Assembly: GCA_016176405.1 (NCBI GenBank)
Contig: JACOXG010000013.1
Span: forward strand, 398 to 64,397
Reading direction: 5' to 3'
Length of the DNA: 64,000 nt
Source: Candidatus Daviesbacteria bacterium
GTDB lineage: Bacteria > Patescibacteriota > Microgenomatia > Daviesbacterales > UBA10151
Shown here: in pieces, positions 2,585-44,453 of the stretch
Layout: every line of letters starts with the position of its first letter
Numbering within the stretch: the first letter of the stretch is position 1
Notes under the pieces: generated by a model
What the model was told of the DNA's origin: nothing
The model's database searches: none
What the model saw: only the letters and a program-made list of their open reading frames with translations
Position numbers and translations under genes: made by a program

Positions 2585-4737
2585 TACCTGTAAGACTCAA
2601 ACTGTTAAACTTCACATCATATAAGGACGCTCCCGAGCTTAACTTTTCCAAATTTCACTTGGCAGCTATCTCCGGCCCTAATGGCGCTGGTAAATCATCA
2701 CTTTTGGATGCTATTACCTGGTGTGTTTGGGGCTGGTCCCGGGCAGGAGATTTAGCGGATCAACTTGTTCATAAAGGTACAAAACATATGTTTGTAGAAT
2801 TAACTTTCCAACTTGATAGTCAGGAGTTTACTGTTAAAAGAGAGCGGAATTTGACTGGTGGCTCCTCAACCAATTTGGAACTTTGGTCGGGAAATCACAA
2901 TTTAACAGAAGGCACTATAAAGATGACTCAGGAAAAAATAATCAATCTTTTGCATTTAACCTTTGAAACTTTCATTAATTCCTCATTCTTAAGACAAGGT
3001 CATGCAGATGAGTTTACTACCAAAGGTCCAACAGATAGAAAAAGAATTTTGGCAGATATTCTAGGTTTATCTCACTATGATGAGTTGGAAGAAAAAGCAA
3101 AAGAAAAAATCAAGGATATCCAAACCAAGCTGAAACTTTTGGAATATCAAATTTTAGAGATAGAGGCGGAAATTTCCATGAAAGGAGATAGAGAAAAAAC
3201 CCTGACTGAATCAAAACAGAAAGTTTTCGAAATAGAGAAAACTGTAAGAAGAGTGGAGGAGGAGTTAATGCTTTTACAAAGGAGGAGGGAGGTCCTTATC
3301 TTAGCATCAGAGCAGCATCAGAAATTAGAACAAAATCTTAATGCCCAACTTATGGAACTCAGTGAAATTGTCACAAAAGGTAAACAAAGAGCAAATAGAA
3401 TTAAGGGTCTTGAACAAAAAATTTTAAGCCTCGAATCAGTTGATCAAAAAATTAAGGAATTAAAAAATTTAGAGCAGGAGGTAGAAATTTTAAACAAGAA
3501 AAATCAAGAAAAATTGGAGTTGGAGAAGCAGTTAGCTCAGATTGCTGGTGTCCTCAATGTAAAAGAAGAGCAGAAAAAAAATTTACAAAAAATCATAGAA
3601 GATTTAAAAAAACAGCTGAACCAGTTATCTATTCCTGCCGCCAAATGTCCAACTTGCGGACAAGAAATTGGCAAAGATCAAAAACACCAAGTCAGACAAG
3701 AACTTGAAAAAAAATTAAATGATAGGGTATCTGAAGTTAACAAAATTTCCATCAAAGATGAACAGATACAAATTCAAAATCTAAATCAAAGAATTATTGC
3801 TCTAAAAATTGATGACTCGAAATTAATAAAACTGCAAAAGGATTTACAAAATCTTGAAATTTTGCAAAAACAGAAAGAAGAATTTTTACAAAACCAAGCC
3901 AGTTTAGAAACTGAAAAGAAAACACGAGAAGAATTATTATCACTTTACAATAATAAAAAAACACAAGTAGATAAATTGCGATCCGAGTTAGAAAAACTTC
4001 CCAAAGTCTCACAAAATTTATTAAAAATCCAAGCTGATTTGGAAAGTAAAGAAAATTCTCTGCAAACTTTGAGAGTAACAGAGAAAGAAGCCCAGACTAT
4101 TTTAGGACAGGCTAAAGAGTTGATCTCTAGATCAGAGCAGCTGGAAAAACTAGCCAAACAGAAAAAGGATGAACAAACATCCTTACAAAAAGATAAAGCG
4201 GCCTATGACGAACTGGCTTTGGCTTTTGGCAAAAAGGGTATTCAAGCCATGATTATTGAAACAGCCATTCCGGAAATTGAAGATGAAGCCAATAGATTAC
4301 TGGAAAAATTAACAGATGGTCGGATGAAAATTGAACTACAAACTCAAAGAGAAACTAAAACTAAGCTGGAGACTGGCGAAAAAGGTATCATCGAAACTTT
4401 AGATATTATCATTTCTGATGAGATGGGTGAGCGACCTTATGAACTTTATTCAGGAGGAGAAACTTTTAGGGTTAATTTTGCCCTCAGAATTGCTCTATCT
4501 AAGCTATTAACCAAGCGGGCTGGAGCCAGATTGCAATTTTTGGTCATCGATGAAGGATTTGGTACACAAGATGTAGAAGGAAGAAACAGAATCGTGGAGG
4601 TGTTAGATGCCATTAAAAATGACTTCGAAAAAATATTAGTCATTACTCATTTGGAAGAGTTAAAGGAAGAATTCCCAATTAGAATTGAGGTTTCAAAAGG
4701 AATTAGCGGATCTACCTTTGAAGTGGTCGGTGTTTGA
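2581..4737 (+). CDS. sbcC: DNA repair ATPase SbcC (Rad50/SMC-like)
   Basis: Walker A GPNGAGKSS, a long coiled-coil, a CPTCGQ zinc hook, and a C-terminal signature/Walker B LQFLVIDEGFGTQD. Immediately downstream of sbcD. Confidence 0.85.
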   Translation: MIPVRLKLLNFTSYKDAPELNFSKFHLAAISGPNGAGKSSLLDAITWCVWGWSRAGDLADQLVHKGTKHMFVELTFQLDSQEFTVKRERNLTGGSSTNLELWSGNHNLTEGTIKMTQEKIINLLHLTFETFINSSFLRQGHADEFTTKGPTDRKRILADILGLSHYDELEEKAKEKIKDIQTKLKLLEYQILEIEAEISMKGDREKTLTESKQKVFEIEKTVRRVEEELMLLQRRREVLILASEQHQKLEQNLNAQLMELSEIVTKGKQRANRIKGLEQKILSLESVDQKIKELKNLEQEVEILNKKNQEKLELEKQLAQIAGVLNVKEEQKKNLQKIIEDLKKQLNQLSIPAAKCPTCGQEIGKDQKHQVRQELEKKLNDRVSEVNKISIKDEQIQIQNLNQRIIALKIDDSKLIKLQKDLQNLEILQKQKEEFLQNQASLETEKKTREELLSLYNNKKTQVDKLRSELEKLPKVSQNLLKIQADLESKENSLQTLRVTEKEAQTILGQAKELISRSEQLEKLAKQKKDEQTSLQKDKAAYDELALAFGKKGIQAMIIETAIPEIEDEANRLLEKLTDGRMKIELQTQRETKTKLETGEKGIIETLDIIISDEMGERPYELYSGGETFRVNFALRIALSKLLTKRAGARLQFLVIDEGFGTQDVEGRNRIVEVLDAIKNDFEKILVITHLEELKEEFPIRIEVSKGISGSTFEVVGV

Positions 4738-5132
4738 TCTACAATATATACATGCCGGCATTAGTTAGTAAACTCACTTTAGCCATAATTTTTTGGGTAG
4801 TTTTTATTTATGTAGTTTTATATATTCCTTATCCGCCAAATTTTACTCAAGCTTCTGCCTTTCAGCTGATTTCATTTTTTGGGGCATTATTTTTAGCAAT
4901 AATATTCACCTTAAATATTTTTCTAAATTCTATTTTTCTCTCAGTATCCATTTCTTTGGGTGTAATTTTTCTTTTAATACTTAAAGCCTTAGAATCTTTA
5001 AATATTGTCACCGCTGTATTAACTATTGTGGCTGTCTATTTGCTTTTTACATATTTTAAGAAAAATCAAAAAGGTTTGACTAATCTTTCCAAAATCCCTA
5101 AACTAAGTAGTTTCAGAAGGAGAAAAAGTTGA
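4734..5132 (+). CDS. small integral membrane protein, function unknown
   Basis: 132 aa, four predicted hydrophobic helices, tightly packed between sbcC and metG. Confidence 0.4.
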   Translation: MIYNIYMPALVSKLTLAIIFWVVFIYVVLYIPYPPNFTQASAFQLISFFGALFLAIIFTLNIFLNSIFLSVSISLGVIFLLILKALESLNIVTAVLTIVAVYLLFTYFKKNQKGLTNLSKIPKLSSFRRRKS

Positions 5133-6551
5133 ATGAATAAATTTTATATACATTGTGCCATTCCTTATGTGAATGCCAAACCACATATTGGTCATGCACT
5201 TGAATTTATCCAAACTGATACTATTGCCCGTTACCACCGCTTATTGGGTGAGGAAATCTTAATGCTTTCTGGGTCAGATGAAAATGCCTTAAAAAATGTT
5301 CAAGCAGCTGAAGAAGCAGGTGAAGATGTCCAAACTTTTGTAGATAAAAATGCCAAACTTTTCCAAGATTTGGCGGAAAAACTTAATGTAAATTTTGATG
5401 TCTTCCAAAAAGGCAGTGATAAAAAACATCATCATCCATCAGCTCAAAAACTTTGGCAGCTTTGTGAGAGTGCCGGTGATATCTACAAAAAATCTTATAA
5501 GGGTCTGTATTGTGTTGGATGTGAATTATTTTATTCACCTGATGAATTAGATGAAAAAGGTGAATGCTTTGAACATCCGGGCAAAAAACTAGAGGAGGTA
5601 GAGGAAGAGAATTATTTTTTTAAGCTTTCAAAATACCAAGATAAATTAATCACAATCATTGAATCAGGAGAATATGAAATTATTCCCGAAAGCAGAAAAC
5701 ATGAAGTTTTATCTTTTCTAAAAAGTGGGCTACAAGATATCAGCATTTCTAGAACTAATAAGCGGACCAAAAATTGGGGAGTCCCTGTGCCCGGCGACCC
5801 CTCCCAGCGAATCTATGTCTGGTTTGACGCATTAAATATCTATCAATCAGGTGTGGGATTTGGTTGGGGTGATAAAAAATATCAAAAATGGTGGCCTGCA
5901 GATTTACAAGTCATAGGAAAAGGGATCATTAGATTCCATGCTATTTATTGGCCTGCTTTTTTACTTTCTGCAAAATTAAAATTGCCTAAAAAATTATTTG
6001 TTCATGAGTATTTTACAGTTGATGGCCAAAAAATGTCTAAAACATTGGGTAATGTTTATGATCCAAATATAGCCATAAAAAAGTTTGGTTCAGATGCCTT
6101 ACGTTACTTTTGTTTGGCTAAAATTTCCCCATTTCAAGACGGAGATTTCTCAGAGGAGAAATTAAAAGAGGCTTATAATGCAGATTTGGCCAATGGGTTG
6201 GGAAATTTAGTCTCAAGAATTGCCAAACTTTGTGAACAGAATAATATCCAAGCAACTGATGGATCCAATGTCTGGTGTGCTGATTTGGAAAAATATATGG
6301 GGGAGTTTAAATTTAATGAAGCCATAGCTGTAATTTGGGAGCTTATTGCTGAAGCAGATAAGAAAATCAATCAAGAAAAACCATGGGAACTTTCTGGAGA
6401 AAAGTTAAAGGCTGTTCTATTAGATTATGTCAAAAGGATCCAAGCCATAGGTTATAACTTGCAACCCTTCTTACCAGAAACTGCCGAAATAATCTTAAAA
6501 CAATTCTCAGGGCCAATTAAATCAGGCCTACCCCTTTTTCCAAGGATCTAA
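5133..6551 (+). CDS. metG: methionyl-tRNA synthetase (short form lacking the C-terminal tRNA-binding domain)
   Basis: HIGH motif (AKPHIGHALE), KMSKS motif (KMSKTLGNV), and a Cys knuckle CVGCE...CFEHPG. Confidence 0.85.
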   Translation: MNKFYIHCAIPYVNAKPHIGHALEFIQTDTIARYHRLLGEEILMLSGSDENALKNVQAAEEAGEDVQTFVDKNAKLFQDLAEKLNVNFDVFQKGSDKKHHHPSAQKLWQLCESAGDIYKKSYKGLYCVGCELFYSPDELDEKGECFEHPGKKLEEVEEENYFFKLSKYQDKLITIIESGEYEIIPESRKHEVLSFLKSGLQDISISRTNKRTKNWGVPVPGDPSQRIYVWFDALNIYQSGVGFGWGDKKYQKWWPADLQVIGKGIIRFHAIYWPAFLLSAKLKLPKKLFVHEYFTVDGQKMSKTLGNVYDPNIAIKKFGSDALRYFCLAKISPFQDGDFSEEKLKEAYNADLANGLGNLVSRIAKLCEQNNIQATDGSNVWCADLEKYMGEFKFNEAIAVIWELIAEADKKINQEKPWELSGEKLKAVLLDYVKRIQAIGYNLQPFLPETAEIILKQFSGPIKSGLPLFPRI

Positions 6552-17240: not shown

Positions 17241-18114
17241 GTGTTGCTAGTTTTTCTTTGAAAGATCTTAAAATCTTAGGCCTAATGTCATTAGGATGGA
17301 AATATAGGGCTCCTTCTTGGATCCTCTCCTGACCAATAGATTTTTGCATGATCTTTAACTGAAACCATTTAGATATAGCTTCTAAAGTATCAAAAGTAGT
17401 AGAAATATCAGAGGTATCAGAAGCTTTTGATACATTTGATACTTTTCCATCCTTTGATACCTTTTCCTGAGCTATCCAATTTGGTAAAAATTTAAATACC
17501 CATTCATTATCAGATAAATACTTAGAATAAACCCCATCTCTCTCCCAAATAACCCTCATTTGTAAAACTTCATGAGCTGTATAAAGATCTTTATTTTTTT
17601 GTTCTAAACAATCTTCTTCCAGTAAAATATTTAGACAAATTTTTCCGGCAATTTTTTGGCCAAAATCTTTTGTAGTTCTTCTTTGTCCAGTTAAAGATAA
17701 AAGTCCCAAAGCCAAAAGTCTGCTAATCCATAATCTATTTTCAGCTGTAATCACAATTAAATCTATATCATCCCCTTTTTCAGCATTTTCCATAGCCAGC
17801 CCACCAGAAATTCCCACCAACTTTATCCAGGGAATAATTTTTAGTAGCTGAGAAATAACAGTTACCTTCCTTATATATAATAGTGACTGTCTTTCTCTTC
17901 TTTTTCTTTTTACTACAATACTTTTTCTCCCTAGCAAAAAATAATAACCACTTTGCACTTGGCACTTCCCACTTTGCACTAATTTCCCCAAACTCTTCTC
18001 CACTTGCCTTAAATTAGCTTTTCTGCCAATCAGCCATTTATGAATTTCAAAAAAGTTTAACGGATAATCAAAAATATCAGCGTAAACTAAAGTTTTCAAG
18101 ATTGCTTTATTCAT
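17230..18114 (-). CDS. nucleotidyltransferase-domain protein (Pol-beta superfamily), function unknown
   Basis: GISGGLAMENAEKGDDIDLIVI matches the GS...DhD nucleotidyltransferase motif. Confidence 0.4.
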   Translation of the reverse strand: MNKAILKTLVYADIFDYPLNFFEIHKWLIGRKANLRQVEKSLGKLVQSGKCQVQSGYYFLLGRKSIVVKRKRRERQSLLYIRKVTVISQLLKIIPWIKLVGISGGLAMENAEKGDDIDLIVITAENRLWISRLLALGLLSLTGQRRTTKDFGQKIAGKICLNILLEEDCLEQKNKDLYTAHEVLQMRVIWERDGVYSKYLSDNEWVFKFLPNWIAQEKVSKDGKVSNVSKASDTSDISTTFDTLEAISKWFQLKIMQKSIGQERIQEGALYFHPNDIRPKILRSFKEKLATLDI

Positions 18115-18156: not shown

Positions 18157-19098
18157 ATGCTTAAATTTATGGATAATTATCCAATGAAAAATCTGACTAC
18201 CTTAAAGATTGGTGGTCCTGCTAAAAAATTTGTCAAAGTTACTAATCCTAATGAATTAATTGAAGCTATAAATTATGCCAAACAAAATAATTTAGAATAT
18301 TTAGTTATTGGTGGAGGAAGCAATCTTTTAGTTTCTGATAAAGGAGTTGATAAATTAATTATCAAAAATGAAATTTTGGGTATTGAACATCAAGGTCAAA
18401 ATATAAAAGTAAAAAGTGGCACAGTTTTGCAAGATTTAGTACATTACTCTATTTCCCATGGGCTGTTGGGAATCCAAAAAATGACAGGAATTCCCGGCAC
18501 AGTTGGTGGAGCAGTTTATGGTAATGCTGGTGCTTATGGCCAAACCATTTCCGACAACATCATTTCTGTTGTCGTCCTGAGCGACCGAAGGGAGTCGAAG
18601 GATCTAATTACTTTAAATAAAGATGATTGCAATTTTAATTACCGGGATAGTGGTTTCAAGAAAAATAAATACACTATTCTAGAAGTGAGATTTAGTTTAA
18701 ATACTAATAATCCAACCACCCTAGATCAAGAGGCTAAAGATGTATTATCCAAAAGATTAATTAAATATCCCCCAGGTATTAAATGTCCTGGGTCTTTTTT
18801 CAAAAATATAGTGGCAGAAACTTTACCAAAAGAAATTTTAGAAAAAATTCCATCAGAAAAAATAACCTATGGCAAAATTTCAGCAGGATATTTATTAGAA
18901 AGCGTTGGTGCCAATGGCCAAGTTCTGGATGGAATAGAAATTGCCGGATATCATGCCAATTTATTTATTAATAAAGGCGGTGGCAGCGCCCAAACTTTCT
19001 ACACTTTAGCCAAAAAATATAGCCAAAAGGTAAAAGAAAAATTTGGCATCACCTTAGAACCCGAAGTCCAACTAATCAACCTTCCACCAATATCTTGA
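18157..19098 (+). CDS. murB: UDP-N-acetylenolpyruvoylglucosamine reductase MurB
   Basis: FAD-binding N-terminus (LKIGGPAKKFV, VIGGGSNLLVSD) and C-terminal MurB domain. An in-frame copy of the dispersed repeat lies at 18571-18605 (VVLSDRRESKDL). Confidence 0.8.
   Translation: MLKFMDNYPMKNLTTLKIGGPAKKFVKVTNPNELIEAINYAKQNNLEYLVIGGGSNLLVSDKGVDKLIIKNEILGIEHQGQNIKVKSGTVLQDLVHYSISHGLLGIQKMTGIPGTVGGAVYGNAGAYGQTISDNIISVVVLSDRRESKDLITLNKDDCNFNYRDSGFKKNKYTILEVRFSLNTNNPTTLDQEAKDVLSKRLIKYPPGIKCPGSFFKNIVAETLPKEILEKIPSEKITYGKISAGYLLESVGANGQVLDGIEIAGYHANLFINKGGGSAQTFYTLAKKYSQKVKEKFGITLEPEVQLINLPPIS
18571..18605 (+). repeat. copy of the dispersed GTCATCCTGAGCG..CGAAGGATC repeat family, inside murB in-frame
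   Basis: gtcgtcctgagcgaccgaagggagtcgaaggatct. Confidence 0.55.
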
Positions 19099-24413: not shown

Positions 24414-26213
24414 ATGCGTATGGCCAAGGCCAAAACAACCAAATCTAAAAAAACTCTCTTCAAATGGGTTAAAAGAGGCTTAGCTATTACAAAACCAAAC
24501 TTACTGCCAGCCACCTTAACCATACTGCTCATAATTTTTATCCTATTAACTTATCAATTTATCATGGCCAATAAATTTTATCCCCTCACCTTCCTAGGTG
24601 ACACCAATGTCAGTTTTTTAACAAAATCCCAGGCCAAATTCGCTTTAGATAATAAATTTAATCAAAGAAAAAATCAAAAATTAACCTATGGAGATTTTAC
24701 TATTGATCTATCAACTGCCTCAGCCCAACTAAATTATGAAGTCTTAGATCAAGCTTATCAGATTGGTCGAAGCGGTAGTATTTGGGAAAGAATCACAGAT
24801 CAATTTAAAGCCTTAGTCTTAAAAGCCAATTTTAAGCCAAAAATTTCTTTAAGTTTAGACAAACAACTTGAACCAATTTCTACCAACCTCTATAAAGCAT
24901 CAAAAAATGCTCAGCTGATATTCGATGAAAAAACTAATTTAGAAGGCTCACCTTCTGCTAGTATTCAAATTATTCCTGCAGAGAATGGCATGGAGTTAGA
25001 TAAAGAGGCTTTAACTTCCGATCTGGAAAACTATTTACTCTTTGGCTACTCCCAATCTGAGTTACCAAGAAAGATTGTCCAACCAAAAGTAACCACCCAA
25101 CAAGTTGAGCTGGCCAAGCAGGCTTTGGAATCTCTCAAAGATCAGTCAATTAGCTTAAAATTTAAAGGTGATATTTGGTTAGTTGATACTAAACAACTGT
25201 TGACCCTGTTGGATTTACAATCTGGTTCTGATCTGTTACTAGATAAAGAGAAAACTTATGCCTTTTTGGAAAAGATTGCCGCGGAAATTGATCAAGATGT
25301 CCAGGAGGCCCTTTTTGAGTTTGACCCTCAAACCAAAAGAGTCAGCGCCTTTAAACCATCTCAGGAAGGTTACAAGCTGGATGTTGATAAGACTTATCAG
25401 CTTTTGACAGAGGCTTTGACAGAAACTCATGCCAAAAGTATCAACTTGCCGGTTGAGATCTTAAAACCCAAAATTGAAACAGCCAATGTCAATTCTTTGG
25501 GTATTAAAGAGCTGATTGGTCGGGGTATTTCTAATTTTAAAGGTTCAATTGTCAATAGGATCTACAATATAAATTTGGCTGCCTCGCGTATCAATGGCCT
25601 CCTTATTCCTCCAGGAGAGGCTTTCTCTTTTAATGGCCAGGTGGGTGATATTTCCGCTGCCTCAGGTTATAAACAAGCTTATGTGATCAAGAGTGGCAGG
25701 ACTGTTTTGGATGATGGAGGTGGAGTTTGTCAAGTTTCCACCACTGTTTTTAGGGCGGTGTTAAATTCTGGTTTACCAGTTACTCAAAGAGTGGCTCATG
25801 CTTACAGAGTTAGTTATTACGAGCAAGGCTTTCCAGTGGGATTGGATGCCACGATTTTCTCCCCTTCGGTTGATTTTAAATTTAAAAATGATACCCCAAA
25901 TCATATTTTAATCCAAGCTTACATTGCTGGTACTACTTTATACGTAGATTTTTATGGCACTTCAGATGGCAGGGTGGCCACTATCTCCAAATCTATTGTC
26001 ACTAATCTGACTTCTCCTCCACCAGAGTTAAGACAAGATGATCCCACTTTACCTAAAGGTGAAGTTAAACAAGTTGATTTTCCCGCCTGGGGAGCCAATG
26101 TCTCATTTAGTAGAACTGTAACCAGAGGAAGTGAAACATTAATTTCAGAAACATTTAAGTCTAACTATAAGGCATGGCAGGCAGTGTATCTGGTGGGTAC
26201 CAAAGAAAACTAA
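24414..26213 (+). CDS. VanW/YoaR-family protein with a C-terminal G5-like domain
   Basis: N-terminal TM; VanW core (GEAFSFNG...DDGGGVCQVSTTVFRAVLNSGLP...RVAHAY); C-terminal LPKGEVKQV...VTRGSE G5-like module. Confidence 0.75.
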   Translation: MRMAKAKTTKSKKTLFKWVKRGLAITKPNLLPATLTILLIIFILLTYQFIMANKFYPLTFLGDTNVSFLTKSQAKFALDNKFNQRKNQKLTYGDFTIDLSTASAQLNYEVLDQAYQIGRSGSIWERITDQFKALVLKANFKPKISLSLDKQLEPISTNLYKASKNAQLIFDEKTNLEGSPSASIQIIPAENGMELDKEALTSDLENYLLFGYSQSELPRKIVQPKVTTQQVELAKQALESLKDQSISLKFKGDIWLVDTKQLLTLLDLQSGSDLLLDKEKTYAFLEKIAAEIDQDVQEALFEFDPQTKRVSAFKPSQEGYKLDVDKTYQLLTEALTETHAKSINLPVEILKPKIETANVNSLGIKELIGRGISNFKGSIVNRIYNINLAASRINGLLIPPGEAFSFNGQVGDISAASGYKQAYVIKSGRTVLDDGGGVCQVSTTVFRAVLNSGLPVTQRVAHAYRVSYYEQGFPVGLDATIFSPSVDFKFKNDTPNHILIQAYIAGTTLYVDFYGTSDGRVATISKSIVTNLTSPPPELRQDDPTLPKGEVKQVDFPAWGANVSFSRTVTRGSETLISETFKSNYKAWQAVYLVGTKEN

Positions 26214-26215
26214 AA

Positions 26216-26599
26216 TTACTTTAAGGCGGACAATTTTTGATCAAAAGTAAAAATATCCACCTCTTCAATTTCTGATTTAGCAACCAGAAAACAATCAACC
26301 AAACTTAAATTTTTCTCTTTATAGATATTTAATGCTCTTTGAAAAATCTCTTTATCTTGAATATCTAAGTAAGCTACACCGACTATTGATTGGAGTCTAT
26401 CAATAATCTCATTTTTAGGAAAAAGGTAATATTTACTGAGAATAAACTCTATTTCAAAAATAATTATTTGAGGAACTACTAGGTTTAATTTTTTATCTTT
26501 TGCCTTTTGAAGTAACTGTGCTGCTTTCTTTTGCTGAGCTGGTACATCATTTAGAAAAAACCTCAGGAAGATATTGGCATCGGCAAGTAGCGATTTCAT
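26216..26599 (-). CDS. vapC: PIN-domain toxin VapC
   Basis: Starts MKSLLADANIF with the conserved acidic residues of a PIN domain; overlaps the upstream antitoxin gene by 4 nt. Confidence 0.7.
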   Translation of the reverse strand: MKSLLADANIFLRFFLNDVPAQQKKAAQLLQKAKDKKLNLVVPQIIIFEIEFILSKYYLFPKNEIIDRLQSIVGVAYLDIQDKEIFQRALNIYKEKNLSLVDCFLVAKSEIEEVDIFTFDQKLSALK

Positions 26600-26856
26600 C
26601 GCTTTTTATCTTTTCTCGCATACTCCTTCACTATATAATCTGAAAATAACTCGTGTACTTGACTATCTGATAAAGGTTTTTTATTACTTTTTAATGACCC
26701 TCCTAACTCTAGTAGGTCTTTAACCGGCTCCAGTATAAGCTTACCGTCTTTTTCTTCTATAAAGGCTAGTTTATTTTTTCCAAACCCAAGTTTACGTCTA
26801 AGCTTTGCCGGGATACTAATTTGTCCTTGAGAGGTAACTGAAACTGTATAAACCAT
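26596..26856 (-). CDS. vapB: AbrB/MazE-fold antitoxin VapB
   Basis: MVYTVSVTSQGQISIPAKLRRKLG is a SpoVT/AbrB swapped-hairpin motif; 86 aa; operonic with the PIN gene. Confidence 0.65.
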   Translation of the reverse strand: MVYTVSVTSQGQISIPAKLRRKLGFGKNKLAFIEEKDGKLILEPVKDLLELGGSLKSNKKPLSDSQVHELFSDYIVKEYARKDKKR

Positions 26857-26857
26857 A

Positions 26858-26903
26858 CATTAAATATACCATATTACATTAAATTTGTCAAATCACATTA
26901 AAT
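26858..26903. promoter_or_regulatory. three CATTAAAT direct repeats at exact 19-bp spacing immediately upstream of vapB; candidate antitoxin operator
   Basis: CATTAAAT at 26858, 26877 and 26896, read directly from the sequence. Confidence 0.45.
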
Positions 26904-26985
26904 TTGCATTTTTAATTACAGTAAGCTATATACTTAGGCTATTTCAACTAACTATATTGGAACTTACTTCTGATATACTTTCTTT

Positions 26986-27651
26986 ATGATTAAAGCAATC
27001 ATTTTTGATGCAGGTGGACTTTTATATAAAAGAGGTGACGCGATTGAAGCTCTTAAAAAAGATCTTCTAGTGCAATTTGGATATCAAGGTAACTATAAAG
27101 ACTTTGAAAAAGCTTATATAAAAGAAAAGTTCAGTGGCTATATTCAACAAAAATCAGTTGAGGAAATGTTTAAAGATATCCTTTCAACTATTGGACTAAA
27201 ATTGGACTCTTATCAATTATTAGAATTTATTCATCAATTTAATACAATTCATAAAAAGATTGCGCCATCAGAATATGCAATTTCAACTTTATCAAAGCTT
27301 AAAGAAATGGGGTTAAAAATATGTATTCTCACTGATAGCTTTTACAATGAGGAAGAAAAATGGAATTGGTTTAAAAGAATTGGTATGAATCATCTGATTG
27401 ATATCATTGTCACCTCATTTGATATCAAAAAATTAAAAGATTCTAAAGAAGCTTATGAGCAATGCTTAGATAAACTTCAATTAAAACCAGAAGAAGTTAT
27501 ATTTGTGGGTCATCAACAATATGAAATGGATGGAGCAAAGGAAGCAAAAATTATCTCAATCGCAATTGCATCTATCTCTGAACCAAATATTAAAGCAGAC
27601 TTTATCGTTAATTCACTGAAAGAAGTACCAGGATTTATTTCTAATTTGTAG
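26986..27651 (+). CDS. HAD-superfamily hydrolase
   Basis: N-terminal IIFDAGGLL (a DxD-type motif I variant), motif II ILTDS, C-terminal K...GHQQYEMDG. Confidence 0.55.
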   Translation: MIKAIIFDAGGLLYKRGDAIEALKKDLLVQFGYQGNYKDFEKAYIKEKFSGYIQQKSVEEMFKDILSTIGLKLDSYQLLEFIHQFNTIHKKIAPSEYAISTLSKLKEMGLKICILTDSFYNEEEKWNWFKRIGMNHLIDIIVTSFDIKKLKDSKEAYEQCLDKLQLKPEEVIFVGHQQYEMDGAKEAKIISIAIASISEPNIKADFIVNSLKEVPGFISNL

Positions 27652-27655
27652 AAAA

Positions 27656-28180
27656 TTATCTTATGAATCTCTTTGCTAAATAGAGTGCAGCAATCATTCT
27701 AGCCTCTGTAAGTTTCCTATCTTCTATTAATTTTTCAAAATCTTTAAAGGGGTACTCAATAATCTCTAATTCTTCAGGTTCATCACCATCAAGTTTACTA
27801 GGTACTAAATCTCTAGCTAGGAATACATGGGTTCTTTGGGTCAAATATCCGGGGGACATTGTTAAAACTCCTAACTTATCCAATTTCCCCGCCCTATAAC
27901 CAATTTCTTCTTGTAACTCTTTATTGGCAGTTTTCAAATCATCGGAATTGTCCTCTATTCTTCCCTTTGGTAATCCATATTGATATTCGTCTATGGCGTA
28001 GAAGTATTCCTTAACCAGAATTAAATCTCCCTTTGAGTTTATTGGTACTATAAGTGCAGTATCAGATTTTTCCATTATCTGATAGGTTACTTTTTGCCCA
28101 TTTTCCAACTGAAGATCAATATCTTTTATAATAAATAATTTTGTTTTGAAAAGTTCTCTTTCACGAAGTCTTTTTATCAT
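27656..28180 (-). CDS. NUDIX hydrolase (ADP-ribose pyrophosphatase-like)
   Basis: Nudix box GRIEDNSDDLKTANKELQEEIG (GX5EX7REUXEEXGU). Confidence 0.8.
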   Translation of the reverse strand: MIKRLRERELFKTKLFIIKDIDLQLENGQKVTYQIMEKSDTALIVPINSKGDLILVKEYFYAIDEYQYGLPKGRIEDNSDDLKTANKELQEEIGYRAGKLDKLGVLTMSPGYLTQRTHVFLARDLVPSKLDGDEPEELEIIEYPFKDFEKLIEDRKLTEARMIAALYLAKRFIR

Positions 28181-28215
28181 AAATAGATTATAGCAGCTCT
28201 AATACCTCAAATTGG

Positions 28216-28242
28216 CATATTATGGATTTTCCGGGCAAGTTT
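28216..28242 (+). repeat. 27-bp direct repeat (26/27 identical), copy 1, flanking the DUF433/DUF5615 module
   Basis: catatTatggattttccgggcaagttt here versus catatCatggattttccgggcaagttt at 28913-28939, inside the 5' end of the PfkB kinase gene. Confidence 0.7.
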
Positions 28243-28272
28243 CCATAAAGATGTAGTATAATACTTTCTGTT

Positions 28273-28470
28273 ATGACAAATAAATCTACATTGAAGAAAA
28301 ATCTTGTGCCAAAAAGCAGAATCCCTATTTCCTATCTTTTGGATTATATAAAAGAGGGTTTAACCATCTCGGATTTCATAGCTTCATATCCTTGGGTTAA
28401 AAGAAAAGATGTGGAAAAAGCTTTAGAAGAAATTAAAAAGAGAGAATTTACCTCTCGTTATGCCTTCTAA
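28273..28470 (+). CDS. DUF433-family small protein (putative antitoxin)
   Basis: 65 aa; the ...ISYLLDYIKEGLTISDFIASYP... pattern is typical of DUF433; overlaps the downstream partner gene. Confidence 0.5.
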   Translation: MTNKSTLKKNLVPKSRIPISYLLDYIKEGLTISDFIASYPWVKRKDVEKALEEIKKREFTSRYAF

Positions 28471-28864
28471 AAAGAGTAAGCTCCAACTTTATGCTGATGA
28501 ATGTTTTCCAGTCCCAGCAGTAACTTATTTGAAATCCTTAGGTTATTCAATTATTCACTCTTATGATAAAAACTTTATTCAGAAAAGTGATCAGTTTCAT
28601 TTATTAACCAGCAAAAAATTGGGTAGAATTTTAATTACTCTTGATAGAGACTTCAATGATTATGAAACAGCTGATCTTAAAGGGTATCCAGGAGTAATAA
28701 TTATTTCCGCTGGATCTACCACTCCGCTCCACATCATTAAAGTTTGTAAAAAGGTACTGAAATTTATCTCTCAAGATTTGGCAAAAGAATCCCTAATTAA
28801 AGTCACTATAGACAAGCTGATTAAAATCAAGAACGGAGAAATAGTTTATGAAAAATTGCTATGA
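28460..28864 (+). CDS. DUF5615 / Mut7-C-like PIN-like protein (putative toxin partner of DUF433)
   Basis: 134 aa; N-terminal LYADECFP acidic motif typical of PIN-like DUF5615; conserved DUF433-DUF5615 gene pairing. Confidence 0.5.
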   Translation: MPSKKSKLQLYADECFPVPAVTYLKSLGYSIIHSYDKNFIQKSDQFHLLTSKKLGRILITLDRDFNDYETADLKGYPGVIIISAGSTTPLHIIKVCKKVLKFISQDLAKESLIKVTIDKLIKIKNGEIVYEKLL

Positions 28865-28879
28865 TAGAATCATCAAGCA

Positions 28880-29812
28880 ATGATTTTAGTTACTGGCTCT
28901 TTAGCTTTTGATCATATCATGGATTTTCCGGGCAAGTTTGCCGATCATATTCTACCTGATAAAATTCACCAAATTAATCTATCTTTTTTAGTAAATAATC
29001 TATCCAAACAAAAAGGAGGTAATGCCGGCAATATTGCCTATACTTTGGCCTTATTTGGCTGTCCAGTTGCCATAGTTGGATCAGTCGGTGGCGATTTTTC
29101 AGAATATGCTAATTTTTTACAAGATGCTGGTGTAGATGTCTCAAAAATAAAAATTATTGAGGGTGATTCCACTTCATCTGCCTTTATCATGACAGATTTG
29201 GCTGATAATCAAATCACCGCTTTTTATCCAGGGGCCATGAATGAAGCTTCATCCCTTTCACTAAGTGGTGTCCAAAGCGATCTGGTAGTGATATCCCCAA
29301 ATGATCCCAACGCCATGGTAAATTTTGTCAAGCAATGTCAAATCTCCCATACTCCCTACATGTTTGATCCAGGAATGCAGTTGCCAGTTTTATCAGATGA
29401 GCAATTATTACAAGAAATTAGTGCTGCTGAAATTTTAGTTGGTAATGATTATGAAATGGAGCTAATAAAACAAAGAATTAAAGATCAAACATTACTTAAA
29501 AAAATCAAAATCCTAATTACCACTTTAGGAGAAAAAGGATCTTTAATACAGACAAAAGAACAAACCATACAGGTCAATCCAGCCAAACCAGATCAGGTGC
29601 TGGATCCCACAGGTGCAGGTGATGCCTATAGAGCAGGCTTTTTGGCAGGATATATAAAAAATTTAGATCTGAAAACTTGTGGCCAAATGGGCTCGGTTGC
29701 TGCTTGTTATGCAATAGAAAAATATGGTACAACTAATCACAAATTTTCAATTTTGGAATTTTGCCAAAGATATAAGGAGAATTTTGGAGAAGAATTAAAC
29801 TATGAAATATGA
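28880..29812 (+). CDS. PfkB-family carbohydrate/nucleoside kinase (adenosine kinase / ribokinase-like)
   Basis: N-terminal GG motif (KGGNAGNIA); C-terminal DPTGAGDAYRAGFLAG PfkB signature 2. Confidence 0.8.
   Translation: MILVTGSLAFDHIMDFPGKFADHILPDKIHQINLSFLVNNLSKQKGGNAGNIAYTLALFGCPVAIVGSVGGDFSEYANFLQDAGVDVSKIKIIEGDSTSSAFIMTDLADNQITAFYPGAMNEASSLSLSGVQSDLVVISPNDPNAMVNFVKQCQISHTPYMFDPGMQLPVLSDEQLLQEISAAEILVGNDYEMELIKQRIKDQTLLKKIKILITTLGEKGSLIQTKEQTIQVNPAKPDQVLDPTGAGDAYRAGFLAGYIKNLDLKTCGQMGSVAACYAIEKYGTTNHKFSILEFCQRYKENFGEELNYEI
28913..28939 (+). repeat. 27-bp direct repeat copy 2 (within the 5' end of the PfkB kinase gene)
   Basis: See 28216-28242. Confidence 0.7.
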
Positions 29813-31058
29813 TATCAAAGACCTAAAACTTGCTCCTCAAGGCAAACTGAAAATTGAGTGGGCCGGCTCCCAAATGAAGGTACTCCGACTAATCAGGGAT
29901 AGGTTTGCCAAAGAAAAACCCCTCTCCGGTATTAAAATAGCCGCCTGTTTACATATTAGTTCAGAAACTGCCAATCTGATGCTGACTCTTAAAGCAGGTG
30001 GTGCTGATGTGACTCTTTGTGCTTGTAATCCCCTCTCCACCAAAGATGATATTGCAGCATCTTTAGTCAAAGATTTTGGCATTCCCACTTTTGCCATCTC
30101 CGGCGAGGATAAGAAAACTTATTATAAACATTTAACAGCAGCTTTGGATACTCACCCGCAAATTACCATGGATGATGGAGCAGACTTGGTCACTTTGCTC
30201 CACACAGAAAGAAAATCTCAGCTAAAAGAAGTTATTGGTTCATCTGAAGAGACTACCACTGGGATGATTAGACTCAAAGCCATGCTTAAGGAGGGCGCAC
30301 TAAAAATTCCGGTAATGGCAGTGAATAATTCTTTAACCAAACATCTGTTTGACAACCGTTATGGGACTGGTCAATCCACAGTGGATGGGATACTTAGGGC
30401 AACCAATATACTTTTGGCTGGAAAAAAGGCTTTAGTTTGCGGTTACGGTTGGTGCGGCAAAGGGGTGGCAATGAGGCTTCGGGGTATGGCTGCAAATGTG
30501 GCGGTGGCTGAAGTTGATCCTGTTAAAGCATTGGAGGCTTTGATGGATGGGTTTGTAGTTAGAACAATCAAGGATGCCATAAAAGACAATGATCTGGTGA
30601 TTACTGCCACCGGTAATAAATCAGTCATCACAGTATCTGATCTTAAAAAAGCCAAAGACGGGATAATTGTGGCCAACACCGGCCACTTTAATGTGGAATT
30701 TGATTATGAGGGAATTGTTAAAGCTGCCAAAAGTAGAAGAACTTTAAGAGAAAATTTAGAGGAGATTACCTTTGAGGGAGACAAAAAAATTTTTGTTTTA
30801 GCAGAAGGCAGGCTGGTCAATTTAGTCACTGCTGAAGGTCATCCACCGGATGTGATGGATATGAGCTTTGCTAACCAAGCATTAGCTGCAGAATATTTAG
30901 TTCAAAACAAGAGCAAGCTTAAAGTAGGAATTCACACCATTCCTGCTCAGTTAGATCAAATGATAGCCCAACTGAAACTTGAATCTCTCGGTATTTCCAT
31001 TGATAAATTAACTGAAGAACAAAAGAAATATCTATCCTCTTGGCAAGAGGGAACTTAA
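29802..31058 (+). CDS. ahcY: adenosylhomocysteinase (S-adenosyl-L-homocysteine hydrolase)
   Basis: IAACLHISSETANLMLTLKAGGADV, the NAD-binding GYGWCGKGVA, and HPPDVMDMSFANQALA are all SAHH hallmarks. Confidence 0.9.
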   Translation: MKYDIKDLKLAPQGKLKIEWAGSQMKVLRLIRDRFAKEKPLSGIKIAACLHISSETANLMLTLKAGGADVTLCACNPLSTKDDIAASLVKDFGIPTFAISGEDKKTYYKHLTAALDTHPQITMDDGADLVTLLHTERKSQLKEVIGSSEETTTGMIRLKAMLKEGALKIPVMAVNNSLTKHLFDNRYGTGQSTVDGILRATNILLAGKKALVCGYGWCGKGVAMRLRGMAANVAVAEVDPVKALEALMDGFVVRTIKDAIKDNDLVITATGNKSVITVSDLKKAKDGIIVANTGHFNVEFDYEGIVKAAKSRRTLRENLEEITFEGDKKIFVLAEGRLVNLVTAEGHPPDVMDMSFANQALAAEYLVQNKSKLKVGIHTIPAQLDQMIAQLKLESLGISIDKLTEEQKKYLSSWQEGT

Positions 31059-32785: not shown

Positions 32786-32923
32786 ATGATGATTGTTTTG
32801 GGCATTGAAACATCTTGTGATGAGACAGCTGCAGCTGTTTTGGAACAAAAAGGGGGACGGATACAAATATTATCCAATGTTGTGGCATCATCTGCATCCT
32901 TACAAGCTAAATATTACCCGTGA
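32786..32923 (+). pseudogene. tsaD: tsaD N-terminal segment in a different frame from the main tsaD ORF
   Basis: [24 protein letters not shown]...LQAKYYP then TGA. This is the canonical Kae1/TsaD N-terminus (GIETSCDET). The main ORF continues at 32920 in the -1 frame, and about 18 codons (the GGVVPE..R.H block) are missing relative to TsaD homologues. Confidence 0.5.
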
Positions 32924-33828
32924 TTGAGACTGCGCTGAACGGATCACGGATTACGAATCACGAATTAGATGCCATTGCTGTAACCTATGGCCCAGGCCTA
33001 ATTGGTTCACTTTTGGTGGGAGTAGAAACAGCTAAAACTTTAGCATACGTTTGGAATAAACCACTTATTCCAGTTAACCACCTCATAGGGCACTTCTATG
33101 CTAACTGGATAACCTCAGCTCACCTCCGAGGTGAAACTAAGGTGTCACCAAGATCACACCTCGGAGGTGTACCTAAGTTTCCCTGCTTGGGTCTACTGGT
33201 CTCTGGTGGCCATACAGACTTGGTACTATTTCATGATCATAGTAAATATACTTACCTTGGTGGAACTAGAGACGATGCGGCAGGAGAGTGTTTTGATAAA
33301 TGTGCCCGCCTGTTAGGTTTACCCTATCCAGGTGGACCAGCCATTTCTAAACTGGCCAAAAAGGGTGATCCTAATAAATTTAAATTACCTACCCCAATGA
33401 AAGGCATCAAAGGCTTTGATTTTTCCTATTCTGGTCTGAAAACTGCAGTAGCAAACCTTTTGCACACCTCCGAGGTGAAGGCTAGGTTACAGCAAGATCA
33501 CACCTCGGAGGTGAAACAGGATTTGGCAGCTTCAATTGAGGAAACTATAGCTAATTCTTTAATTGATAAGGTTATCTTAGCAGCAAAAAAATATAAAGTT
33601 GAACAAATTATGGTTGCAGGAGGAGTAGCTGCTAACCAGAAATTAGTGGACAGGTTACAGGATACAGTGAACAGTATGAATCCAAAGATCAGCTTACACG
33701 TACCACCTGCCCATCTTTGCACGGACAATGCTGCCATGATTGCAGCAGCCGCCTTTTTCCAAAAACCTATTAATCCGCCAGCTGGCGGACCCCTCTCTTT
33801 ACAGGCAGACCCTAATTTGACTTTATAA
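32920..33828 (+). CDS. tsaD: tRNA N6-adenosine threonylcarbamoyltransferase TsaD (Kae1/Gcp family), body of the gene
   Basis: [26 protein letters not shown] metal site, [49 protein letters not shown]. Carries two in-frame palindromic insertions. Confidence 0.8.
33121..33169 (+). repeat. 49-bp palindromic element (13-bp perfect terminal inverted repeats CACCTCCGAGGTG / CACCTCGGAGGTG) inserted in-frame in tsaD, copy 1
   Basis: Read directly. Encodes [17 protein letters not shown], an insertion relative to TsaD homologues between the HxxGH site and the LVSGGHT motif. Confidence 0.75.
33465..33513 (+). repeat. 49-bp palindromic element, copy 2, inserted in-frame in tsaD in a different reading phase
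   Basis: Same 13-bp arms; the 23-nt loop ends in the same caagatca as copy 1; encodes [18 protein letters not shown]. Confidence 0.75.
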
Positions 33829-41048: not shown

Positions 41049-41113
41049 GTCATCCCTTCGGGTCTGAGCCTCAGGGTCGAAGACCTGAGCGAGTGAAACG
41101 AGTCGAAGGATCT
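41049..41113 (+). repeat. extended copy of the dispersed GTCATCC..CGAAGGATC repeat family
   Basis: gtcatcccttcgggtctgagcctcagggtcgaagacctgagcgagtgaaacgagtcgaaggatct; lies in the rnhA / DUF4012-gene spacer. Confidence 0.55.
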
Positions 41114-41114
41114 A

Positions 41115-42738: not shown

Positions 42739-43957
42739 TTTTCCATTCTAACATGGACAAAGAGATTCCCCAGATTAAAAAAAGTAATCTATAGCCTTGG
42801 GGTAAAGTTAGAAAGTAGTGGTCAAATAGACCCAGGAAAATGATGACAACCCAGATTAAAAGTAGAGTTTTGGGTTCAGGGTTGGTGGTTCTAAGTTTAA
42901 AAAGCTTCCAAATTGGATAACCAATTAACCCTAACAGCCCCAACAACCCTAAAATTCCCGTTTCAGCCAAAGCTAAAAGGAAAATATTATGTACTGGTTG
43001 TAAAAATCTGGAAGGCCCAGATACTAACCCCTCAGATGAAGCTGGAATAAAATTATTTAAGCCTATTCCAAAAATAGGCGAGCTTAAAAACATCTGCCAG
43101 GCACTGATTGAGAGCTCTTCTCTTCTTATAAGTGTCAAGCTATCAAAACTAAATAAAGCCTCGAATCTAGTAAAAAGAATGGGGGAGAGGATAATTAATA
43201 ATAATACTAAAACTATTTTCCACCTTCTTGACAAAGTCATCATGGCCATAGCCACTCCAGCTATCAAGGCTACTCTGGAGACAGTTAAGAGTAGTGTGAT
43301 TGTGCCTAGAAGCATTGATAAATTTAAAAGCCCCCCTCTCCTGTTTACCCCTTGATAGGCAATCCATGACACCAACATTATTCCAATAACCATAAATCCT
43401 GCCAAAACATTAGGGTGAGGAAAAGTGGCGTATGGCCTTAAAAATTCGAAGCCCCGGAAATCAAATTTGGCAATGGCAGGGGTGGTAATAGAAAAAGTCC
43501 GCTCCCCCAAGATCCAAAGTCCAATAGTCCCTCCCTTTAAAAACTGCAGGATGGCCAAAATAGATTCTCCCAAAATGGCCAAACTTAGTGGTAAAAACAA
43601 CTTTCCCCTTAACACTTCCCACTTTGCACTTGCTATATAGATCCCAAATAAGCCTGCCATTAAATATTGATCTAATCTGACCAACCCTGCTCCCAAATTA
43701 CCGTTAACCAGTGAAAGGCTTTGGGATAAAATAAAAAAGAGAAATAAATTTAAGGCCTTTTTGTTGATGGGCTGTCTTTGGATTAGCCAGACTACCAAAA
43801 GTAATCCCACCAAAAGATCCCAAAAATAGATGGTGGGCGAGAGGTAATCAACTCTTAAGGAGAAAATATAACTAAACTGGGGCCAAAAATGCTTCCCCAA
43901 TTGCGTTGGAAGAAAGAGCAGGGTTAAAAAAAGAAATATTGCCTCAACTCTCTTCAC
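42722..43957 (-). CDS. O-antigen ligase / Wzy_C-family polytopic membrane protein
   Basis: 411 aa, more than 10 TM helices with a periplasmic-loop region typical of the O-antigen ligase family. Confidence 0.45.
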   Translation of the reverse strand: MKRVEAIFLFLTLLFLPTQLGKHFWPQFSYIFSLRVDYLSPTIYFWDLLVGLLLVVWLIQRQPINKKALNLFLFFILSQSLSLVNGNLGAGLVRLDQYLMAGLFGIYIASAKWEVLRGKLFLPLSLAILGESILAILQFLKGGTIGLWILGERTFSITTPAIAKFDFRGFEFLRPYATFPHPNVLAGFMVIGIMLVSWIAYQGVNRRGGLLNLSMLLGTITLLLTVSRVALIAGVAMAMMTLSRRWKIVLVLLLIILSPILFTRFEALFSFDSLTLIRREELSISAWQMFLSSPIFGIGLNNFIPASSEGLVSGPSRFLQPVHNIFLLALAETGILGLLGLLGLIGYPIWKLFKLRTTNPEPKTLLLIWVVIIFLGLFDHYFLTLPQGYRLLFLIWGISLSMLEWKNAKSS

Positions 43958-44453
43958 TTTTCACTTTTGACTTGCCACTTTGCTCGCTTCGCGAAGCGAG
44001 CACTTTTATTACAATGTGTCTATCTCTTCCCTCACCCATACTTTCAGTTTCCAATCCTTCCATCTCACCAATGGCTGTGTGTACTACTCTTCTTTGCCAA
44101 GCTGACATTGGCTCCAGCTCTAAATTTTCTTTAGTTTCCAAAACTTGATTGCCCCAATTTTCAGATTGTCTTTTTAAATCCTCCTCTTTCTGTTTTCTCC
44201 ATCCCCCCACATCTACTATCACTCGCTTGAATCCGTCAGCTGACGGACTTTCTCCCGCCTTTCGAGACACCATCTGGTTAATTAAAAGCTGTAAAGCCTC
44301 CAAAGATTCACCTCTGGCTCCAATCAGCCTTCCTGCATCTTTAGTTTCAATTGAGACTGAAAAATTTTCCTCAGTCTCCTCAATATCATAACTACCCTCA
44401 AGAAGGAGAAGTCCTAATAGATTGTCCAAAATTTCTGATAATTGTTCTTCCAT
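43944..44453 (-). CDS. jag: Jag/KhpB-like RNA-binding protein (KH + R3H domains)
   Basis: GRLIGARGESLEALQLL is a KH-like GxxG motif; R3H region EPMSAWQRRVVHTAI; sits in the conserved rnpA-yidC-jag arrangement. Confidence 0.7.
   Translation of the reverse strand: MEEQLSEILDNLLGLLLLEGSYDIEETEENFSVSIETKDAGRLIGARGESLEALQLLINQMVSRKAGESPSADGFKRVIVDVGGWRKQKEEDLKRQSENWGNQVLETKENLELEPMSAWQRRVVHTAIGEMEGLETESMGEGRDRHIVIKVLASRSEQSGKSKVKSEES

Follow-up and report, generated by a model that had tools for sequence, protein, structure and literature searches.

A 27-bp segment of a kinase gene was found duplicated upstream of a toxin-antitoxin (TA) cassette in Candidatus Daviesbacteria, a host of the Candidate Phyla Radiation (CPR, Patescibacteria). 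The DNA analysed, here called the window, is a stretch of 64,000 nt from contig JACOXG010000013.1 (GCA_016176405.1), and positions given without a locus number refer to it. The cassette consists of a DUF433 antitoxin gene and a DUF5615 toxin gene and lies directly 5' to a PfkB-family kinase gene; one copy of the 27-mer precedes the cassette and the other lies inside the kinase gene. We consider it rather likely that the upstream copy is a recombination scar without a dedicated function, left as the trimmed remnant of a partial duplication that ran from the TA genes into the 5' end of the kinase gene. The evidence comes from the bounds of the repeat, from the TA-kinase junction in related genomes, one of which carries a longer relic, and from a comparison of the cassette family at large. 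An original prediction, made from the sequence of the window, had explained the repeat either as the target duplication of an inserted cassette or as the product of a site-specific integration into the 5' end of the kinase gene that regenerated the gene start.

A segment of the kinase gene is duplicated upstream of the TA cassette

The two copies, CATATTATGGATTTTCCGGGCAAGTTT (28216-28242, + strand; copy 1) and CATATCATGGATTTTCCGGGCAAGTTT (28913-28939, +; copy 2), were identical at 26 of 27 bases, with a longest exact run of 21 nt and a start-to-start distance of 697 bp. Copy 2 comprises codons 12-20 (HIMDFPGKF) of the kinase open reading frame (ORF; 28880-29812), which appears functional from its sequence, and the same stretch was conserved in every Daviesbacteria kinase examined. 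Copy 1 is a non-coding relic of these codons that abuts a truncated TA promoter and has sharp bounds on both sides; it was identical at all 27 positions to the corresponding codons of the kinase in L001 (fetched loci are cited by such numbers). The original prediction had described a direct repeat around the DUF433/DUF5615 genes whose second copy encodes kinase codons 12-20, and both statements held. It had also proposed a search for the 27-mer elsewhere, which gave no third copy in the 64-kb window with up to 3 mismatches allowed.

Beyond the 27 bp, similarity of the flanks fell to the level of shuffled sequence (local score 7 versus a mean of 8.0 on the left, 10 versus 9.4 on the right). A longer hidden duplication around the 27-mer was considered and rejected, since gapped and ungapped flank alignments were no better than those of shuffles. 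The left flank was also tried as a remnant of kinase codons 1-11, and the MAFFT alignment (about 39% identity) was noise. An in-frame stop at 28180-28182 and no start codon are present to the left of copy 1, and kinase codons 1-11 are therefore absent there. About 17 nt (28199-28215) separate copy 1 from the promoter of the neighbouring NUDIX gene, and the 17-35 nt left of copy 1 had no match in the window or in any fetched locus. No duplicate of the kinase 5' end was present in 29 other kinase loci.

In an AT-rich genome, a repeat with a longest exact stretch of 21 nt might arise by chance similarity or as an assembly artefact. The probability of this is close to nil. Matches to the 27-mer numbered 0 in 100 shuffles, comparable repeats occurred in 2 of 562 control segments (see below), and both copy regions were base-for-base identical in five Logan assemblies (L046-L050), which are independent and stem from different sequencing runs. 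These identical assemblies and a longest exact stretch of 21 nt together exclude a k-mer assembly artefact.

Copy 1 occupies the position of the -35 region of the TA promoter and is 96% identical to copy 2 though non-coding. Both properties would suit a functional duplicate, that is, a regulatory site coupling the expression of the TA genes and the kinase, either as a DUF433 operator or as an upstream element of the promoter. We judged this very unlikely, in that no other TA-kinase locus with the module has copy 1, that neither dyad symmetry nor a stable structure was found in it, that a sigma-70 promoter scan made no call at it, and that copy 2 is conserved on account of its coding role. The joint between copy 1 and the promoter creates an 8-codon mini-ORF, ATGGATTTTCCGGGCAAGTTTCCATAA, at 28222-28248 (ATG GAT TTT CCG GGC AAG TTT CCA TAA, MDFPGKFP*). 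It lies just 5' of the TA -10 box and is probably fortuitous.

The TA-spacer-kinase junction is conserved in relatives

The truncated TA promoter and leader span 28243-28272 (+), with a -10 box TATAAT at 28257-28262, and homology with relatives begins at TTTCCATAA. When the promoter was compared with those of L051, L052, L053, L133, L134, L138, and L139, the promoter segment TTGACTATAAATTTCC of the relatives was missing in the window, and the kinase fragment (copy 1) stood exactly in its place. The joint reads ...GGCAAGTTT/CCATAA, in which TTT is common to the promoter of L051-type cassettes, a match of 3 nt only. Two further sequences near TA promoters were examined as candidates and dismissed. 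GATTATAAATTTCC, upstream of the TA genes in L051 and L052, was tried as an eroded kinase fragment and proved to be the promoter segment of the cassette, equivalent to TTGACTATAAATTT in L053, L133, L134, L138, and L139. GATTATAG at 28186, tried as a TA promoter, is the reverse complement of the extended -10 promoter of the NUDIX gene and is conserved in L136 and L137.

The predicted antitoxin gene (DUF433, 65 aa, 28273-28470, +) matched Pfam PF04255 with 31 bits (cut-off 23.6 bits), and the predicted PIN-like toxin gene (DUF5615, 134 aa, 28460-28864, +) matched PF18480 with 54.3 bits (cut-off 23.8 bits). The two ORFs are co-directional with the antitoxin first and overlap by 11 nt. Relatives of the antitoxin had 83-93% amino-acid identity, and the toxin had many relatives, reaching 83-90%. 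We take DUF433/DUF5615 to be COG2442/COG4634, a predicted type II pair of a PIN-like toxin and a small DNA-binding antitoxin. Gene order, overlap, sizes, and Pfam matches agree with this family; judged by these features the module does not stand out within the predicted DUF433/DUF5615 TA family, and the proteins themselves are unremarkable. No paper treating DUF433 together with DUF5615 was found, in a literature search of incomplete coverage.

A 15-nt spacer (tagaatcatcaagca, 28865-28879, +) separates the toxin gene from the kinase gene, and it is homologous in L051, L133 (twice), L134, L138, and L139. In L051, L134, L135, L138, and L139, the module was followed by the spacer (tagaatcatcaag...) and then by the kinase start, in register with the window. 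An upstream kinase fragment was absent from L051, L135, L138, and L139; L134 is uninformative for the repeat, its contig having 57 nt of the kinase beyond the toxin. The variable side among the relatives was upstream of the TA promoter, which was preceded directly by VanW, by DUF2283, or by other minus-strand genes. The conserved junction together with the variable upstream DNA indicated that TA, spacer, and kinase make up a stable unit on the margin of a variable interval.

These comparisons disagree with the simple cassette insertion of the original prediction. Its pre-insertion site would be without kinase codons 1-11, given the stop at 28180-28182 and the missing start. Moreover, the prediction had itself named an identical arrangement without the repeat in related genomes as speaking against it, and four relatives (L051, L135, L138, and L139) have exactly this. 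The end of the supposedly inserted segment (spacer and kinase codons 1-11) is homologous to other genomes. An insertion that ended precisely at codon 11 and landed precisely at codon 12 is not credible, and the kinase side must have been joined by homology.

A longer relic precedes the TA-kinase unit of L133

In L133, a complete TA-kinase unit (toxin 88% identical) was preceded by a relic (tblastn E = 2.5e-4) in which the 3' end of a DUF5615 gene is followed by the spacer and then by the kinase gene from codon 1 to about codon 20. The relic runs into the TA promoter region and has diverged from its downstream partner to about 67-75% identity. In L134, a piece of the toxin 3' end only was located ahead of the same promoter region. 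By its composition, the L133 relic would be the predicted untrimmed product of a duplication from the TA genes into the kinase 5' end. Since its joint with the promoter is placed elsewhere than that of the window, the two events appear to be independent. The original prediction had allowed that the repeat might belong to a longer ancient duplication, which it counted against its own reading. This is borne out for L133, where the duplication is longer and older and includes the toxin 3' end and the spacer, and not for the window, where similarity ends with the 27 bp.

The relics also bear on another origin of copy 1, in which repair or template switching at the joint between the NUDIX block and the TA promoter would have copied a 27-nt patch of the kinase gene, with about 17 nt of other origin, and a second unit would never have existed. 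This would account for a relic that is short, sharply bounded on both sides, and located exactly at the border between variable cargo and the conserved TA-kinase unit, with about 17 unexplained nt alongside; the kinase segment ATTATGGATTTTCC also resembles the displaced promoter segment ATTATAAATTTCC and could have primed the switch. Such junction filling nevertheless seemed unlikely to us. L133 demonstrates that this locus does give rise to longer relics, in which the toxin 3' end and the spacer are included, and the family-wide repeats, which include gene starts and stops, would be left unexplained. To our knowledge, templated junction insertions are also poorly documented in bacteria.

Variable cargo occupies a hot spot between VanW and the kinase

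The gene order VanW-kinase-AhcY was conserved in about 20 Daviesbacteria genomes. The original prediction had proposed that the kinase locus be compared with related genomes for an empty site, and this comparison succeeded in part: VanW adjoined the kinase directly in L001, L003, L010, and L019, and no such site was available from the lineage of the window itself. The cargo between VanW and the kinase differed in L002, L004-L009, L133, and the window. Other genomes carried 0.3-4.8 kb of unrelated cargo, including HicAB, the gene of a 23S-rRNA intervening-sequence (IVS) protein, DUF2283, NYN, and other TA pairs. The 2.67 kb of cargo in the window consist of PIN/MazE, a HAD hydrolase, and a NudE-type NUDIX gene, followed by DUF433/DUF5615. 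In its conserved flanks and changing cargo, the interval upstream of the kinase resembles the hot spots of the minimal-mobile-element type.

Three loci added details on the occupation of such intervals. In L066, a related TA cassette (5-361, -) is divergent to the kinase (457-1018, +; 77.5% identical over 120 aa) and located about 95 nt from its start codon, and the hot spot is thus occupied in the opposite orientation. In L135 (270-292), the stop codon TGA of VanW serves as the TGn of the extended -10 promoter of the TA operon (gaaaatTGATATAATtggattattATG), and the cassette starts at the -10 box. In L006, a 20-nt direct repeat (18/20 identical, ACGATAAnCnATATACGATA; 4546-4565 and 4969-4988) brackets the 23S-rRNA-IVS protein gene in the VanW-kinase interval, which may be a chance match in AT-rich DNA.

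Direct repeats of neighbouring gene ends bracket the cassette family

For the family as a whole, the 600 nt upstream of the module were compared with the 600 nt downstream in 42 non-redundant DUF433/DUF5615 loci (E < 1e-3), with 562 segments of equal geometry serving as the control. A direct repeat of 15-44 nt bracketed the cassette in 7 of 42 loci: L115 (44 nt), L082 (41 nt), L083 (34 nt), L061 (31 nt), the window (27 nt), L052 (19 nt), and L086 (15 nt). Inverted bracketing repeats were found in 0 of 42. Direct-repeat matches occurred in 2 of 562 control segments, and the enrichment over controls was significant (Fisher p = 1.6e-7, or 2e-6 without L082). One control match was a third copy of the L082 repeat. 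This L082 element is GC-rich and hairpin-capable (ACTCGCCCGCCAAAGC..TAGCGA.GGTGGGAGAAT), with at least 3 copies in the locus (2594-2634, 3385-3425, and about 310-340). The other control match was L069, where a 58-nt direct repeat (86% identical; 3836-3893 and 5220-5277) lies on both sides of a 1.4-kb insert. The insert contains a RhuM-family gene (4217-5212, -) and a 121-aa ORF, and the right-hand copy of the repeat coincides with the 3' end of an HTH_25 (RodZ-like) gene. Since a RhuM insert is bracketed alike, the phenomenon is not limited to TA cassettes.

The repeat sequence differed at each bracketed locus, and each repeat copied the end of a neighbouring gene. In L083 it is the start codon plus codons 2-11 of a polysaccharide-biosynthesis (flippase) gene, in L061 the final 10 codons of pth together with its stop, in L115 the stop-codon region of a GGDEF/EAL gene, and in L052 VanW codons -13 to -7. 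The L052 cassette (toxin 87% identical) is located between VanW and a convergent threonine synthase gene; the VanW copy of its repeat (3113-3131 and 3804-3822, 19/19 identical) lies 8 nt past the toxin stop and, on the opposite strand, supplies the final codons of the ThrC ORF. Homology between the cassettes of L082 and L083 was confined to the stretch that begins about 30 nt ahead of the antitoxin start and ends at the toxin stop, and no conserved cassette termini were found in this comparison. Empty sites for L061, L083, L115, L069, and L052 were not present among the fetched loci. Taken as a whole, the bracketing direct repeats are a recurrent insertion footprint of the cassette family. The original prediction was right in that the repeat duplicates the kinase 5' region and is tied to the placement or rearrangement of the TA cassette, and bracketing by gene ends recurs in the family.

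The footprint might be read as a true target-site duplication, produced by long staggered cuts through machinery acting in trans or through the cassette's own PIN-like nuclease together with DUF433, with the TA genes as a minimal mobile element. The strong enrichment over controls and the arrangement in L083, L061, L115, and the RhuM locus L069 (native flank, repeat, insert, repeat, native flank, with the neighbouring gene intact) are as this would have it. Yet the repeats ranged from 15 to 58 nt in length, the cassette ends were not conserved between L082 and L083, and in the window and L052 the repeat is internal to a gene whose end is supplied by the "insert" in register with relatives. Bracketing of the RhuM insert further implies that the TA proteins are not required. 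We regard target-site duplication as an improbable account of the repeat.

No mobility machinery was found at the locus

Recombinases were sought by Pfam on the ORFs between 12 and 43 kb of the window. There was no integrase or transposase between the repeats, which enclose the TA genes only, nor among the ORFs of the scanned region, which are housekeeping and cargo genes. IntI was likewise absent from these ORFs, and no attI was present. Single-strand DNA folds of both repeat regions were not significantly more stable than those of shuffles (z = 0.09 and -1.83), which left no attC-like fold. No relevant inverted repeat or terminal inverted repeat was found at the cassette, and no Rfam family matched at the locus. 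The length of the duplication was 15, 19, 27, 31, 34, 44, or 58 nt at different loci and not fixed as it would be for a transposon. Features of an attachment-site (att) element were also missing, namely an element-encoded recombinase, a shared core sequence, and a displaced gene end beyond the distal copy.

The second proposal of the original prediction was a site-specific integration into the kinase 5' end, by a 27-bp att core or as an integron-like cassette, in which the element supplied a new gene start. A direct repeat around the module and an intact kinase downstream are what it would leave. Against it stand the missing integrase, transposase, and attC-like structure, the absence of the displaced kinase start left of copy 1, the same junction without a repeat in L051, L135, L138, and L139, and repeats that differ from locus to locus and in length (15-58 nt). 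Site-specific integration is in our opinion extremely unlikely. Variable length, the lack of a recombinase and of conserved ends, locus-specific repeats, and one-sided homology in register argue together against a transposon, an integron cassette, and an att-site element alike.

Homology-anchored illegitimate recombination as the favoured explanation

The data fit illegitimate recombination that is anchored by homology and has its joint a few codons inside a conserved neighbouring gene. In the model that we favour, TA, the 15-nt spacer, and the kinase would have made up a stable unit on the margin of the hyper-variable interval that follows VanW. Kinase codon 20 (...GGCAAGTTT) would then have been joined illegitimately to the TA promoter about 15 nt upstream of the -10 box (TTT/CCATAA, 3-nt microhomology), while homology kept the kinase side in register. 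This could have occurred as a 697-bp tandem duplication through homology with the sister chromosome, or as import of a fragment with the TA genes and kinase 5' end from a related strain through one-sided homology, as in homology-facilitated illegitimate recombination (HFIR). Either route would yield the order kinase(1-20)-TA-kinase. The redundant upstream copy would subsequently have been trimmed or replaced by the NUDIX block, probably when this block joined, with codons 12-20 left behind. The order of these events, the choice between tandem duplication and import, and the trimming step are what we infer from the present arrangement. The 26/27 identity of the two copies suggests a recent event or gene conversion.

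Several points weigh against this explanation. It requires that codons 1-11 of the relic were lost in a further event, and it does not account for the 17 nt left of copy 1. The joint has a microhomology of 3 nt only. No close relative was available, with the best kinase match being 73% identical over the full length and 81-86% over N-terminal fragments; an empty site, a donor, or an intermediate from this lineage was not seen in the collections searched. The copies in the window are 26/27 identical versus about 67-75% for the L133 relic, and a shared history is not necessary. DNA identity was 80-84% for the TA genes versus 70-74% for the flanks, a moderate difference that is at most suggestive of exchange by transformation with homologous recombination in the flanks and does not demonstrate recent horizontal import. 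Regarding the family footprint, the L082 repeat was rejected as a target duplication, given that its third copy points to a dispersed element resembling repetitive extragenic palindromic (REP) sequences, and the 15-nt repeat of L086 is marginal.

A broader proposal, which we put forward tentatively and with more doubt than confidence, is that small accessory cassettes of the CPR (TA, RhuM) spread recombinase-free and regularly leave a 15-58 nt duplicate of the end of a neighbouring gene. If so, the repeat would be the footprint, long sought, that chromosomal TA modules leave on integration, and could serve as the substrate for later precise excision as a circle, which might then re-integrate in another strain at the homologous site. 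In the extreme version, the PIN-like nuclease (DUF5615) and the DNA-binding protein (DUF433) may themselves promote insertion.

Comparison with known systems

HFIR has been described during natural transformation in Acinetobacter, Streptococcus pneumoniae, and Pseudomonas stutzeri. Its products resemble the arrangement reported here in having in-register homology in a conserved gene on one side, what may be an illegitimate joint at a few bases of microhomology on the other, and no element-encoded recombinase; a joint inside the anchor gene leaves a partial duplicate, as in the window and L133. They differ in that the microhomology here is 3 nt only and that an intrachromosomal tandem duplication would lead to an identical arrangement.

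Minimal mobile elements are known from Neisseria as hot-spot cassettes flanked by conserved genes. As in the VanW-kinase interval, a fixed interval between conserved genes is empty or holds alternative small cargo, often TA pairs. The folA-apaH interval of E. coli, which holds ccdO157, is a further case (PMC7167474, PMC3184786). Unlike the present locus, the descriptions of minimal mobile elements and of folA-apaH report no fragments of neighbouring genes duplicated at the cassette edges. Integrative elements insert into gene ends and regenerate them, for example at the att sites of tRNA and tmRNA genes. There too the direct repeat corresponds to part of the target gene, which stays intact; in contrast, the locus in the window has no integrase, the displaced gene end is missing, and the repeat is locus-specific and variable in length. 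Integron gene cassettes carrying TA modules are found in the Vibrio superintegron (PMC7167474). Those are likewise small promoter-proximal TA cassettes among accessory genes, whereas the cassettes here lack attC, attI, and IntI and carry their own extended -10 promoters.

A review of 2020 considered the integration mechanism of TA systems unelucidated (PMC7167474). We found no report of neighbour-gene duplicates bracketing TA cassettes, with coverage of the literature being incomplete. The footprint of the cassette family is reproducible and statistically strong, and the route to which it points is homology-anchored illegitimate recombination at hot spots. The integration of TA modules becomes accessible to computational surveys, in which bracketing repeats are set against empty sites in many genomes. 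In annotation, a short repeat of a gene fragment next to a TA module should not be taken for an att site.

Flanking genes and other repeats in the window

The left-hand conserved flank of the hot spot is the VanW-domain gene (24414-26213, +). It is followed by the PIN/MazE toxin-antitoxin pair (-) and the HAD hydrolase gene (+), both assigned by Pfam and together spanning 26216-27651; these genes were absent from the VanW-kinase interval of the relatives examined. The NudE-type NUDIX gene (27656-28198, -) completes this cargo and has its own extended -10 promoter, CTGCTATAATC, at 28186-28196 (-). The NUDIX orthologue of L136 (5001-5531) sits within the division and cell wall (dcw) cluster, in the order ftsW-DUF2283-NUDIX-murG-ftsQ-ftsA-ftsZ. 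On the right, the conserved flank is the PfkB-family kinase gene (28880-29812, +), followed by AhcY (29802-31058). The kinase is probably a nucleoside/adenosine kinase. It was 100% identical to a Candidatus Daviesbacteria protein, and its next best full-length relative had 73% identity; an exact-protein look-up for strain variants returned no record.

Repeats of other kinds were also noted. The tsaD ORF (32920-33828) contains two in-frame palindromic copies of about 50-70 nt (CACCTCCGAGGTG ... CACCTCGGAGGTG; 33118-33188 and 33462-33532), which are translated. The palindromic motif occurred 4 times, only there, versus 0.02 expected. These elements resemble in-frame insertions of the Rickettsia palindromic element (RPE) type, and motifs similar to them flank the TA cassette of L054. 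Elsewhere in the window, a repeat at 18576-18606 and 41084-41114 (CCTGAGCGA..GAGTCGAAGGATCTA) was 87% identical, a family of CACTTTGCACT-rich 39-mers was located at 17942-17980, 43592-43630, and 43948-43986, and a 34-nt tandem pair was present at 63061-63126.

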